Source: Eledone cirrhosa (taxonomy: Eukaryota). Taken from it: DNA of 64,000 nucleotides. The first letter of the stretch is position 1. Each line of letters begins with the position of its first letter. A program made the position numbers and the translations under genes. The stretch lies in NCBI GenBank assembly GCA_964016885.1, contig OZ024752.1, positions 25,420,001-25,484,000 of the forward strand, written 5' to 3'. Below are positions 1 through 64,000 of this stretch, one piece after another. The notes beneath the pieces were generated by a model. The model saw nothing but the letters and a program-made list of their open reading frames with translations. It was not told the origin of the DNA and made no database searches.

Positions 1-18
1 ATACCTGAAATTAGAAGT

Positions 19-1460
19 TTGGCCCCTCTCGCACTGTGGAACAATTCTTTCGCGGTGATTGATTGGTTCAACGGCATATGTAACAAGGAACATTGCCGTT
101 TTATCCAATTCGACATTAACAATTACTACTCCTCCATCACTTTACCACTTCTCCTTAGAGCTATCAATTTCGCTAAAACACTCACAGTGGTTAAGGATTT
201 CGAAGTTGGTGTCATCCATAATGCCCGAAAGTCGGTGATTAATTTCGACGACTCTATTTGGATTAAACAATCCAATAGTACCCCCATTCGACGTGAGTAT
301 GCGCGCCAGTGACTCTGCGGAGGTTACTGATCTCATTGGCCTTTTCCTTCTTTTCTCTATCGAGGACGAATTCCCCAACACGGGCGGTGGTTTGTACCGT
401 GACGATGGTCTTTTGACCATGACTAAGTGCGGACCTCGTGCTTGCGACAGGTTCAGAAAAGAACTCACAGCCTTCTTTAAAGGCTTCAACCTCTCTATAC
501 AGGTTGAGGCCAATCTCTCCGTCGTTAATTACCTTGACGTTACCCTTAATTTATTGAATGGGTTGTATTACCCGTATAGAAAGCCGAATGATACGCTTAA
601 TTACATAAGTAATCATTCCAACCATCCTGCCAGTATAACCAAGAACCTGGTAAAAAAACGTTTCGTTGAGGCTTTCCCGTCTTTCCACCAACGAGCGCAT
701 TTTCAACGACCATTCCACTTACTACAATGAAGCTCTTGCTCGAAGTGGATTTGTTGATAAGGTAGCATATACAGAGTACGAAAATAGACCTAGAAGAAAT
801 AGATCCCGTCGCATTTGTTGGTTTAACCCACCATATAATATGGAGGTGGCCACACCATTAGCTAAGATCTTTCTTTCCCTTATTACGAAGCATTTTCCCC
901 CTACACATAAATATAGTAAAATTTTTAATAGAAATACTATTAAAATGTCTTACTCTACGACTCCTAACCTTGCACATAACATCACAGCTTCAAATTTAGC
1001 TAAACTACCTAGCCGTAGGAACACGTGCAACCCTGTAGTTAGTACTAACTGTAATTGTAGGAATCGGGCTGATTGCCCCCTATCCGGGAAATGCCTCTCT
1101 AGTAACATTGTCTACAAATGTAAGGTTGTAACACCCACGTCCCGTAGGGCCTACATAGGGTTAACCGCCAATAGTTTCAAGCAGCGTCTTTACATGCATA
1201 CCCATTCTTTTCGTTACCCTCTGAGAAGGAATATGACGTCACTTTCAGCTTATATCTGGAGTCTAAAAGACAACCACACCCAATATAAGTTACATTGGGA
1301 GATCCTAGCTAGGGCTAGATCGTATAACGGAAATAAAAGACCATGTGACCTCTGCGCCGCTGAGGCCCTGGAAATACTCTACGCCAGGGACCACATCTTA
1401 AACAAAAAATCTGAGGCAATTTCGGCTTGTAAACATAAATTGTACAAAACTTTCATAACG
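19..1460 (+). pseudogene. Frameshifted PLE RT-GIY-YIG ORF (pieces 19-312, 293-730, 666-1550)
   Basis: Three overlapping frames carry consecutive RT, thumb and GIY-YIG segments. Confidence 0.9.
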
Positions 1461-2378
1461 GATAACACGATCTATACGTGGATATTTTACGTCTTGATGT
1501 GGGAGCTAAGTATATGTTTTGTTTATTCCTTTAATTATTTGCATAGGTAAGTATATATTACCCGTATGTTTTGTGAAGGTATGTATACCTTCTCGTACGT
1601 ATATTTGACTGTTCTGGCGTATAATTTTTACATATTCTGGTATTTAGGGTTTGGCTATGTGTATACGGGAGTTTTGCGTCTGCGTGAGTATGCAGGTTCG
1701 TACGTATGGTGGGTGTGTGTATATGTGTACTTCTTGTTTTAGTTGACTTACGTCTCCGAACATTCGTGTATTTATTTGTAGGTATGTGTGTGCGCTTGTT
1801 ATATACGTTTATATAATTATTTATTTATTTATTTGTACACAAGCATACACACACACACATATTTATATGTGCGTGGTTTTGTATACCTATGGTAAGGTTT
1901 TGAGAATGCTTGTGTATGTACGTATCTGTTTGCGTGTATGTATTTATTTGTTTCTATTACTTCTGTATTGTATTTATTTACTTTGTTCTTAACTCTGTAG
2001 CGGAGATTCATTTGGTCTCCTAGTTAGAATTTTAGTCTACAACTTCTGCTTTACCTTTTACGTGGTTTTGTCTTTGCGTGCTATTGTTCTCCACGCTCCA
2101 CATATGACGTATTATCTTCGTTTTTTTCGTTCATCGCCAGAGAACGTCTCTATGCACCACCTAAGAGAACATTAGTCTACGACCTCTATTATACCATAAA
2201 CGTGGTTCTGTCTTTGCGCGTAATTGTTTTTCACCGCTCCTATTATTGACGTATTATTCGTTTTTTCCCGTTCTTAGCCAGCGAACGTTTCCACGAACCA
2301 AAGTATCGTCTTCCTGTCTTCCTCCGGTTGCAACGTTTTTTGAAATATCCAGTTCTGCGTTTACAGATTGACTTTGTT

Positions 2379-2429
2379 AGTTTCAGAAGATCCCGTTAAG
2401 GGTGAAAGCAGCGATTCTTTGCTTAAACT
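2379..2429 (+). ncRNA. Hammerhead-like motif, family A (non-canonical CAGAAGA core)
   Basis: agttt-CAGAAGA-t ccc gttaa ggg t-GAAA-gca gcgattctt tgc-TT-aaact; stems I, II and III all pair. Confidence 0.5.
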
Positions 2430-2586
2430 TTAATCTGTTATTTTAATAAATATTTGCTCTACGGTTCTTATATATTTGATATATATTTTCCTTATCGAGC
2501 CCTCTTTCGATTTTAGTCTTCAATTTTATTATTATTACTATATATATATATATAGTTATGTAATAAACAACATAAGGCAATTATTC

Positions 2587-2640
2587 CATTTACCAGTGGT
2601 TTCTTAAAAGCAAAAGATTTTGCTTTCAATCCTCAGAATG
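2587..2640 (-). ncRNA. Type I hammerhead, family C distal copy (GUA site)
   Basis: catt-CTGAGGA-ttgaaagcaaaa tc ttttgcttttaa-GAAA-ccactgg-TA-aatg. Confidence 0.85.
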
Positions 2641-61317: not shown

Positions 61318-61520
61318 AGTGAGGTTTCTTTTTACAAAATGAAAAATAACCGGTGTCCTACACGAGTGAAAGTATAAAGAAAAAGAGATGAAATCGAAAA
61401 TGCAACTGCAGTCTTATTTTTTAAAAATATATATATATTTATTTGGTTCCTTTACCGGTTTCGGAGTTCTGCTTTTCAAAAGGTGAGTTGAGATGGAGGG
61501 GCTGTGGTTTTTCTCACATC
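61318..61520 (-). mobile_element. Family H 3' end with U3-A8 HHR (61449-61483, stem II decayed)
   Basis: cctt-TTGAAAA-gcagaactcc-GAAA-ccgg-TA-aagg. Confidence 0.8.
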
Positions 61521-61904
61521 TATATATATATATATATACATATATATATATATATATATATATATATATATATATACATATATATATATATACATATATA
61601 CATATATATATATATATACATATATACATATATATATATATATATATATATATATATATATACATATATATATATATATATATATACATATATACATATA
61701 TATATATATATATATATACATATATACATATATATATATATATATATATATATATATATATACATATATATATATATATATATATACATATATATATATA
61801 TATATATACATATATATATATATATATATATATATATATATATATATATATATATATATATATATATATATATATATATATATATATATATAGATAGATA
61901 GATA

Positions 61905-62570
61905 ATTTAATATATCTACTAACATAAGCTCACAGATGTACGCTAATGCCAGCAAATACACAGGTTATGTCATAGTACCCAGGTGGTTCAATGCAGGAGG
62001 ATGCAGAACAATAATATAGAAGACGTAAAATAAGAACATTTTTTAAAATAATTTAAAAAAAATTAACTTACTTACTTAAATTTTCACTCCAACTAATTAG
62101 TTTCTGCAATGGGATAAAGACAGTTACGTAATGAACTGTTGAGAATTTCATTGCGTCATCAGGGAGATCTATTCTCAGCCAAGTCTCCAGGCAATGCGCG
62201 GACACTGGGGACTCATATAAAAATAATAATAATTCGGTAAATGGAACAGCTATCGAGGAGCCACTGGTCATATGGCCGATTCTAAAGAATCAATCACGTG
62301 ACACAGAGGCTAGTCAGTAGGAATGGGATGGTAAGATCCAGCTGTTCCATTTACCGAATTATTATTATTTTTATATGAGTCCCCAGTGTCAGCGCATTGC
62401 CTGGAGACTTGGCTGAGAATAGATCTCCCTGATGACGCAATGAAATTCTCAACAGTTCATTACGTAACTGTCTTTATCCCATTGCAGAAACTAATTAGTT
62501 GGAGTGAAAATTTAAGTAAGTAAGTTAATTTTTTTTAAATTATTTTAATTTTCTTATTTTACGTCTTTTA
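61905..62570. mobile_element. Family G fold-back; HHRs 62087-62166 (-) and 62425-62504 (+)
   Basis: 62020-62250 is the reverse complement of 62338-62570; ctcc CTGATGA c gcaatg..cattgc a GAAA ctaattag TT ggag. Confidence 0.85.
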
Positions 62571-62610
62571 TATATATATATATATATATATATATATATA
62601 TATATATATA

Positions 62611-64000
62611 CGATATTAATAAATGGAAACTATATTTATAAAACCATATTTATTTCATTATACATATTTCAGGGATACCAAATTAAATTATGGTATGCCT
62701 TCATCAGACAAAATACAATATATAACAGTTTTACAAATAAGCTTTGACGTACCCTATTAAAATGCAACCATTGTTTTTGGAAGTCATCTGGATAGTGAAT
62801 TGTTTATATAACTTTAATAAGTCATAGCGTTAAGGACAATTAGAGAAAGACGGAGAGAAAGAAAAAGACGGAGAGAAAGAAAAAGACGGAGAGAAAGAAA
62901 AAACGTGGAGAAATATCGGAGAGAGAGATGCATGGAGAAAAAAAGAAAGAGATAAGTAAAGACAGGAGGAAAGGAAGAAAAAAGGAAGAAATAAGAAAAA
63001 CAGAGGAAAGCAACAGAGAGATATTAGGTCAACAGACAGATAGAAAAACTCAAGAGAGAGAAATGTTATATAGAGAGAGAGGGAGATTATGAAAACTTTA
63101 CGTCATGTCATGTTAACCTGAGTTAACAATTCATATGAAATGAATAATAAAAATATAAATATTAATGTTCATGAATGGGATATAGATATATAATGAGAAA
63201 TTAAACATTGTTTAATAATGACTATATGTTTAGTTTAAACCTTGAGATCAATATACCAAAATTTGGGTTTAATCTCCAAAATGTACACATTGGTAGAGAA
63301 AGACACACAAATATATATATATATATATATATATATATATATATATGCAAAAGTTTTATTTAAAATTGTTGGGTTACAACGAGTAAATATTTTATAACTG
63401 ATATAAAGCACTCAACAAGTTTTGGAGTAGATATACGATATTAAACAAATGGAAACTATATTTATAAAACCATATTTATTTCATTATACATATTTCAGGG
63501 ATACCATATAAAAAATATGGCATGCCTTCTTCAGATAAAATACAATATATAAGCAGTTTTATAAATAAATTTGACGTACCATAAAATATTGATCAACTTC
63601 CATTTAAAAAAGTTGGTTTGGTAGTGAAATGTTTGTAAATATTTAGTGTTAAGCATAGTTATAAAAGAAAGACGTAGAGAAGGAATAAATGTATGTAAAG
63701 AAAAACAGAGAGAGATAGAGAGAGATATGGGAGAGAGAAATAGTGAGGAGGTGAAAAATGAGAGGCAGCTGAGGTAACAGATGAATAATAATAATCATCA
63801 TACAAATTGAGAGATTTAGGAGGAAGGGAGTACTGTAATTATTTATTTATTTATTTAGTTATAGTGTTAAGGAGACGGAGATAAATAAAAAATAACTAAA
63901 GAAGAAAGCTATATCTAGAGAGAAGGATGACAGATTTACAACTTTACGTTATGTCCCATCATTTTGAATTATCAATTCATATGAATTGGGTATTATACTG
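62611..64000 (-). mobile_element. Two diverged ~826-bp tandem units, each with an HHR (62651-62715, 63477-63542), family M
   Basis: tatttt(g/a)t-CTGA(T/A)GA-aggcat(a/g)cca..tggtatccct-GAAA-tatgta-TA-atgaaata. Confidence 0.78.

Follow-up and report, generated by a model that had tools for sequence, protein, structure and literature searches.

Hammerhead ribozyme motifs in a (TA)n-rich stretch of the Eledone cirrhosa genome: probable 3' ends of Penelope-like elements and retrozymes

The window analysed here is the whole 64,000-nucleotide stretch at positions 25,420,001 to 25,484,000 (forward strand) of contig OZ024752.1 in the Eledone cirrhosa assembly GCA_964016885.1. It is 30% GC, and (TA)>=6 tracts cover 13.6% of it; the host genome comprises 3.0 Gb in 1,796 contigs. 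Homology mapping together with by-eye reading identifies 35 type-I hammerhead ribozyme (HHR) motifs with both halves present, belonging to 14 families, in good agreement with the roughly 34 motifs from about 13 families claimed by an initial annotation made from the letters alone, as well as about 6 further half-motifs from two additional families. Family names were assigned in the present analysis and need not match the letters used in that annotation. We consider it very probable that these motifs are the 3'-terminal HHRs of nine families of Penelope-like elements (PLEs) and of five retrozymes without open reading frames (ORFs), which end in (TA)n genome-wide, with the retrozymes likely using Penelope enzymes. 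By hand tally, about 39 kb of the window consists of such HHR-bearing elements.

When compared with the type-I core consensus taken from PMC3088659 (C3 U4 G5 A6 N7 G8 A9 / G12 A13 A14 A15.1 / U16.1 H17), 21 of the 35 motifs have an exact core and cleavage triplet, five carry a U3-A8 swap and nine deviate, three each by U4A, by G17 and by decay. The elements and motifs are listed below with their predicted classes (RT, reverse transcriptase; EN, endonuclease; UTR, untranslated region; pLTR, pseudo-long terminal repeat).

1-2541 (+): family A, Hydra-clade PLE that starts before the window; RT-EN pieces 1-1550, 3' UTR, end at (TA)n
2379-2429 (+): HHR A, core CAGAAGA (U4A), stable stem III
2540-4419 (-): family C insertion; two HHRs in the 3'-terminal 1.75 kb of a Hydra-clade PLE
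4287-4419 (+): inverted 3' piece within the family C insertion
2584-2643 (-): HHR C1, canonical, UA site
3841-3892 (-): HHR C2, G17, upstream copy
4287-4340 (+): HHR C1 in the inverted piece
4814-4864 (-): HHR A, decayed core CAAAAGA
5064-6582 (+): family D, 5'-truncated PLE; GIY-YIG EN 5619-6179, inverted duplicate 5075-5635
6388-6424 (+): HHR D, core canonical, stem I broken in this copy
7807-7852 (+): HHR F20 (U3-A8), ORF-less tandem unit of ~322 bp; the element, 7597-8011, has an inverted 5' arm
8444-8495 (-): HHR F07, 3' half only; F07 is Hydra-linked elsewhere
9643-9789 (+): HHR cgatcg, domain II 116 nt; element 9343-9842
10401-10445 (-): HHR D
11629-11688 (-): HHR C1; element 11531-13697
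13136-13193 (-): HHR C2 (G17)
13852-13902 (-): HHR E, inverted arm of insertion 13836-17881
17748-17798 (+): HHR E, 3' end of Hydra-clade PLE; microsatellite-like 3' UTR of 2.3 kb
18032-19900 (-): family F18, 3' part of Neptune-type PLE; thumb-linker-EN 19152-19900 (broken) and 3' UTR
18107-18138 (-): HHR F18 (U3-A8, ccgg)
20470-20523 (+): HHR C2 (G17); element 20103-23100
20759-20908 (-): HHR cgatcg in the left arm of a palindrome inserted into the internal TA tract of family C
20907-21056 (+): HHR cgatcg, right arm of the same palindrome
22946-23005 (+): HHR C1, decayed core CTCAGGA
23247-28179 (+): family cgatcg, 5'-truncated Hydra-clade PLE; EN ORF 23442-24128, 3' UTR 4 kb
27968-28121 (+): HHR cgatcg
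28466-28977 (+): family F29, single copy of 1.06 units; 467-485-bp ORF-less tandem retrozyme
28657-28738 (+): HHR F29, canonical, stem I 8 bp, stem III 7 bp; folds as a monomer in silico
33792-38159 (unstranded): family B2, Neptune-type PLE; RT-thumb/EN ORF 35076-36236(-), long inverted arm
33792-33833 (-): HHR B2 (U3-A8)
37978-38019 (+): HHR B2 (U3-A8, weak stem I)
39537-39610 (-): HHR G, decayed
40070-40113 (+): HHR F07, 5' half only
40223-43956 (+): family A, full pLTR-ORF-pLTR copy; ORF 40868-43043 broken by frameshifts
40675-40725 (+): HHR A (U4A), 5' pLTR
43890-43940 (+): HHR A (U4A), 3' pLTR
45022-45064 (+): HHR F00 (ctag), 442-498-bp ORF-less tandem retrozyme; copy 44972-45326
45940-45982 (-): HHR D
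46316-46397 (-): HHR G (ctaattag), 534-bp ORF-less tandem retrozyme; copy 46259-46786
47458-47531 (-): HHR F10 (tatata), 1301-bp ORF-less tandem unit; copy 47170-48542
49911-50020 (+): X38, a further U3-A8 HHR family, 3' half, 5'-truncated
54232-55256 (+): family D2, 5'-truncated PLE; EN 54233-54691
54964-55001 (+): HHR D2, canonical core, stem I 2 bp
61449-61483 (-): HHR F18 (U3-A8)
62087-62166 (-): HHR G, inverted arm
62425-62504 (+): HHR G
62651-62715 (-): HHR F03, 3' end of Hydra-clade PLE
63477-63542 (-): HHR F03

Judged from sequence, nine of the 14 families are 3' ends of PLEs: A, C, E, F03, cgatcg, D, D2, F18 and B2. In A, D, D2, F18 and B2 the link to a sense-oriented ORF is visible inside the window. 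The cgatcg copy is 95% identical across 5 kb to copies with an RT-EN frame of at least 678 aa, a Hydra-type EN lies directly upstream of family C in 16 of 20 loci (tblastn only), and an EN lies upstream of F03 at one constant offset in 8 of 25. Motifs and homology place A, C, E, F03 and cgatcg in the Hydra clade: the family A ORF carries all of the Hydra motifs (RWR, DKT, CxCX5C, CxxC, CxH), frames with CxCX5C are found also in cgatcg, E and F03, and CCHH is absent from the single ORF with RT and C-terminal GIY-YIG. The anatomy of the group includes the pLTR-ORF-pLTR arrangement at 40223-43956, inverted pairs, fixed ends at (TA)n and an HHR in the pLTR. A protein search with the Hydra ORF returned 1,203 homologues without names, an Argonauta protein among them; a PDB sequence search with it gave no match, and Pfam gives it no RT family. 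Translations of D, D2, F18 and B2 contain a C-terminal GIY-YIG EN with CCHH, a CX4CxxC linker (criterion CX2-5CxxC) and an HHR after the EN, with PF01541 matches for D and B2, which suggests the Neptune/Nematis type, the two clades being taken as one group. Three PLE families had been left unlinked by the initial annotation because their EN ORF sits 1-4 kb upstream. The long mixed (CA/TA) 'microsatellites' at 14399-17141, 25212-27304 and 34151-34731 are 3' UTR parts of families E, cgatcg and B2, copied genome-wide at 80-95% identity, and not local slippage arrays.

The other five families, F00, G, F29, F20 and F10, have the sequence organization of non-LTR retrozymes, that is, ORF-less units arranged head to tail. 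In arrays elsewhere in the genome their periods are 442-498 bp (F00), 534 bp (G), 467 bp (F29), 322 bp (F20) and 1301 bp (F10), so that set beside a retrozyme criterion of ~150-450 bp the four short units span 322-534 bp and F10 stands at 1301 bp. The short units are 34-37% GC, their longest Met-initiated ORF is at most 78 aa, and their circular folds have z-scores of -3.4 to -9.0 relative to shuffles (15 shuffles each). No PLE ORF was found in the 1.5-kb flanks upstream of F00, G, F29, F10 or a second U4A family described below. The earlier proposal that the locus holds ribozyme-bearing retroelements, with the ORF-less families being PLE ends or retrozyme-like RNAs, is thus borne out by nine PLE 3' ends and five ORF-less tandem units. 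Two more retrozyme arrays lie within 50 kb of the window, both with inverted halves: L051:131-4113 (469-bp unit, 9 HHRs, circular fold z -14.3) and L060:6749-8532 (310-bp unit, 6 HHRs, z -5.7). A SINE-like (short interspersed element) insert with a 15-bp target duplication occupies 47277-47450, just 3' of the F10 hammerhead.

PLEs and retrozymes share an insertion anatomy: the 3' end is fixed and lies at (TA)n, the 5' end is ragged, and there are inverted 5' arms. A (TA)>=6 tract lies at most 350 nt downstream of 32 of the 35 motifs. Taken together, the ORF links, the fixed 3' ends abutting (TA)n, the variable 5' truncation, the inverted 5' arms, the head-to-tail units and the core conservation discussed below form the basis of our assignment, and the shared anatomy suggests that PLE enzymes likely mobilise the retrozymes. 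Several families have two 3' ends 50-90 nt apart, the PLE 'tail'. As read by eye, with an ambiguous short end of C1 excluded, the template beyond the 3' end runs on into 3-10 nt of alternating A/T at 10 of 12 mapped ends (the exceptions are E-short and F10), as compared to 6.5% of random positions; nicked (TA)n may therefore anneal to internal AU runs to prime synthesis. Among 100 copies with an intact 3' end, from seven PLE families, 79 span the cleavage site, one starts there and 20 start 13-208 nt past it. Cleavage as a terminator of cDNA was considered and rejected, since the 5' end falls at the cut site in only 1 of 100 copies. (In E and F18, 5' ends seem to cluster immediately upstream of the HHR, but this was not used, as subfamily divergence can produce it.) Because most copies span the site, cleaved linear monomers would not be the main templates; we infer uncut or religated circular RNA, which these data cannot separate. 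Copies spanning the cut site fit both the circle model proposed for PLE HHRs in PMC4209133 and the report in PMC11167929 that uncut RNA is the main substrate of the PLE PAc. In a single case, at 33792-33833 (-), the B2 arm ends two bases past the predicted cleavage site and is followed by ATATA, which could reflect a copy primed on cut RNA or microhomology.

In the mechanism that we propose, the GIY-YIG endonuclease would nick a (TA)n target, and reverse transcription would likely start from the nicked DNA, primed at a short AU run inside the element, 60-300 nt 3' of the ribozyme, with the template uncut or religated at the ribozyme itself. Priming downstream of the ribozyme would explain why even very short copies retain the hammerhead. 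The ribozyme would serve to cut multimeric transcripts into monomers that then circularise, acting mostly as dimers by way of the palindromic stem III. Since the tails and 3' UTRs of the elements are TA-rich, new targets would arrive with every insertion, building nests such as this window.

Several observations weigh against this interpretation. Stem I is only 1-2 bp in six of the 35 copies, and 14 of the 35 have a non-canonical core. An Rfam scan of the window at gathering scores returned no hammerhead match; the best score is 14 bits for Hammerhead_HH9 (52 needed) at 28647-28756, from models that derive from other architectures, and an E-value scan was uninformative, being dominated by microsatellite look-alikes of microRNAs. 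The hammerhead junction is clear in the minimum free energy folds of F29 and cgatcg, and not in those of A, C, E, F18 or B2. The assignment of family E to PLEs comes from one locus, which has direct continuity to an ORF, and none of the retrozymes could be linked by sequence to a particular autonomous PLE. Finally, work on one PLE in vitro (PMC11167929) describes HHR cleavage as unneeded for insertion and priming as not homology-based.

Could the motifs be chance matches in AT-rich, self-complementary sequence? The silence of Rfam and the very short stems of a few copies would fit such an origin, but its probability is negligible. A strict descriptor (CUGANGA, stem II of at least 3 bp, GAAA, UH, stem I of at least 4 bp) finds 13 matches in the 43.9 kb of non-microsatellite islands against 0 in each of 60 dinucleotide shuffles and, when a minimal stem III is also accepted, 15 across the window against 0 in 30 block shuffles, which is the kind of control that the initial annotation had called for. 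In a genome sample of 70 stretches of 10 kb (700 kb, or 0.02% of the genome), taken at round coordinates on 20-odd large contigs with small contigs omitted, so that the draw is not strictly random, strict motifs number 72, or 103/Mb (bootstrap 69-141), and three shuffles give 0, 0 and 2. The cores CCGANGA and CGGANGA have no match in the sample, and these two, like UAGANAA, AUGANUA and CUGCNGA, are no commoner than in shuffles. The palindromic stems III reported earlier (ccgg, ctag, cgatcg, ctaattag, tatata) are all present and self-complementary, A15.1/U16.1 included; six of eight short stems III tested are perfect palindromes, and that of family C is broken by one central mismatch. Shuffles thus refute chance for the set as a whole, and the above-chance occurrence of the core and of three stems with stem I open confirms that the hammerhead motifs are real, although single weak copies such as D2 may still be chance. 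A different question is whether the locus is itself special, a selected or functional hotspot such as a piRNA-cluster-like (PIWI-interacting RNA) trap or a source of circular RNA. Strict motifs are 2-3-fold denser here (234/Mb in the window, 310/Mb or 31 motifs in the 100-kb flanks) than in the scattered sample, and the bootstrap probability of at least 15 per 64 kb is 0.03, assuming independent 10-kb blocks. However, motifs per kb of (TA)n are equal in the window, flanks and scattered sample (1.72, 1.79 and 1.86), so the 2.3-fold excess of the window follows from its 2.5-fold higher (TA)n content; individual scattered 10-kb loci reach 5-8 matches; and every family searched has hundreds to thousands of candidates elsewhere. 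We therefore regard a special cluster as very unlikely. The suggestion that this locus collects ribozyme retroelements is misplaced in its emphasis, and the wording that almost every unique island has an HHR was overstated, given that RTE and CR1 long interspersed elements (LINEs), a Helitron piece and SINEs carry none. The locus is an ordinary TA-rich sample of a known kind of element in an extraordinary genome. In the first 50 scattered stretches, 41 of 46 matches lie less than 500 bp from (TA)>=6, as compared to 43% of random positions; since TA is partly made by the elements themselves, cause runs both ways, and the cgatcg palindrome at 20699-21248 lies within the TA tract of family C itself.

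Even if real, the motifs might be structural or protein-binding signals, or relics, that cut no RNA in vivo. In favour of this view, the U4A of the commonest family falls in a region whose mutants showed low activity (PMC9901934), C2 carries G17, 5' truncation points are not concentrated at the cut site, and PLE minimal HHRs are described as weak cutters in vitro (PMC4209133). The distribution of substitutions among homology-collected copies of 11 families argues otherwise, though many copies came from best-hit searches, which lower diversity. Changes seen in a single copy are as frequent at the 11 core positions (0.32 per column) as at other positions (0.30), whereas changes common to at least three copies affect 1 of 121 core columns and 107 of 650 others (Fisher p=1.2e-6). 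Because singletons are unbiased and shared core changes are rare, decay after insertion appears neutral while spreading lineages keep an intact core. Shared changes spare precisely the 11 catalytic positions, while N7 and H17, which are free to vary, show them in 6 of 11 and 4 of 11 columns, and C3-G8 covaries to U3-A8 in several families; both patterns are expected of catalysis. Covariation across copies, proposed earlier as a check, is present: one pair of F00 stem I occurs as G.U, U.G, A-U and C-G, and compensatory stem changes are found also in E, D and F03. Purifying selection and covariation indicate that source lineages retain the catalytic core, and we judge it unlikely, if less so than a special cluster, that the motifs do not cut.

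Two variants stand out. Of 36 family A copies, 32 read CAGAAGA and not one reads CTGA; the family is so young that the selection test lacks power here. A second, unrelated U4A family (L253:4365-4448; G000:C7:80004365) has CAGAAGA in 16 of 16 copies matched by a pattern that allowed any first two bases, with a stem I of 8 bp. This second family has a long stem III, 2,437 first-look candidates and no PLE ORF within 1.5 kb upstream. CAGANGA yields 15 matches in 700 kb against 0 in shuffles. The accessible part of PMC3088659 names U4C, not U4A, and mutants in this turn have low activity (PMC9901934); in the U4A families the ribozyme may be weak or dead and not be needed. In family C two hammerheads lie ~1.1-1.5 kb apart, with G17 in 27 of 27 upstream-type copies and A17 in 31 of 31 downstream-type copies. 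Since their stems I are interchangeable and their stems III able to cross-pair, a dimer of the two would let the upstream core cut at the downstream site, while the downstream core would not cut the upstream one. Equally well, the G17 of C2 could stem from a founder mutation carried by a recent duplicate.

The strict density extrapolates to 0.31 million motifs genome-wide (0.21-0.42), and adding U3-A8 (12) and U4A (15) cores raises the density to 141/Mb and the total to 0.42 million. It is possible, but on balance doubtful, that the Eledone cirrhosa genome holds the largest HHR load yet seen (0.3-0.4 million, one per 7-10 kb) together with an active U4A core in two high-copy families and a family C heterodimer in which an uncuttable G17 copy lends its core for one cut per transcript. 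The highest published count that we met is up to 120,000, in axolotl (retrozyme papers PMC7229834 / bioRxiv 10.64898/2026.07.22.740005), and PMC4209133 counts 2,000-9,000 per genome with another descriptor. We found no literature report of this load, the U4A core or the G17 partner, nor of 3' termini placed at AU runs inside the element; U4A may already figure in Lunse et al., a study of PLE hammerhead variants. The accessible text of a 2026 Octopus vulgaris repeat annotation (PMC13282606) never uses the word 'ribozyme'; it counts 893 recently active SINE families as unclassified.

Much of what we describe is already published: hammerhead-bearing Hydra-clade PLEs in (TA)n, one octopus family among them, as well as PLE minimal HHRs, the U3-A8 swap and retrozymes. 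The Hydra clade of Craig et al. 2021 (PMC8557442) resembles the elements found here in its C-terminal GIY-YIG EN, RW[K/R], DKT, CxCX5C linker, CxxC and CxH, and likewise in (TA)n insertion, a 3' type-I HHR, U.U at the base of stem II and a near-palindromic stem III; its Files S1/S2 describe (TA)n targeting, hammerheads of the same build and the octopus family Hydra-1_Obim. Published members are mostly <3 kb with one HHR, and 26 of 26 Hydra rows in File S2 have CUGANGA, whereas here 3' UTRs reach 2-4 kb and are microsatellite-like, A has CAGAAGA, C has two HHRs, and domain II of cgatcg is 115 nt. The PLE minimal hammerheads of Cervera & de la Pena 2014 (PMC4209133) likewise occur in pLTRs, with many truncated solo copies, and form pairs on opposite strands 100-700 bp apart; the U3-A8 covariant, a palindromic stem III and the dimer model are shared too. 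Non-LTR retrozymes (Cervera & de la Pena 2020, PMC7229834; Li et al. 2026, bioRxiv 10.64898/2026.07.22.740005) are similarly non-coding head-to-tail units of a few hundred bp, with one type-I HHR per unit, GC <45%, a stable circular fold and co-occurring PLEs; the 2026 preprint describes a PLE origin for them. Circular RNA has been shown for those retrozymes. The present units, described from sequence, differ in number (at least seven that are unrelated, of which the window holds five), in their inverted arms of PLE type and fixed (TA)n ends and, for F10, in a length of 1.3 kb. The Poseidon element PAc of Anolis (Frangieh et al. 2024, PMC11167929) also has two alternative internal 3' ends ('tail'), an AT-rich target and a template uncut at the HHR, but primes at a site without target homology, unlike the A/T-alternating overlap seen here.

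The window itself is no discovery, its class being known; the interest lies in the HHR load and in two testable variants. Hundreds of thousands of HHRs in dozens of young families amount to a natural mutational scan, which already shows core selection during transposition. Two families have been successful with U4A, which makes it possible to ask whether the U-turn uridine can be spared given help from protein or tertiary contacts, and the dimer model can be tested directly in family C, which has two hammerheads per transcript and one cuttable site. With so many families, autonomous and non-autonomous, using the same target, PLE priming and ribozyme retention become testable.

Other elements accompany these families. 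An RTE-type LINE at 29043-32183 (-) has an open 1046-aa frame (apurinic/apyrimidinic (AP) endonuclease, RT, PHD finger) and an (ATC)n tail beside the F29 TA tract, and a CR1-type LINE at 55968-60362 (+) has an ORF1-like product of 399 aa (weak Myb/SANT) with AP endonuclease and RT in two frames. A Helitron fragment with PIF1 helicase at 52252-54276 (+) is interrupted by the D2 PLE. X38 fragments lie at 38442-38558, 46157-46208 and 49911-50098; this family is very abundant (26 blast pieces in 500 kb), and intact copies (L074, L250) have a U3-A8 hammerhead with a 45-nt domain II. One sampled stretch, L253:6880-8330, contains a long minisatellite array with a 30-32-bp repeat.

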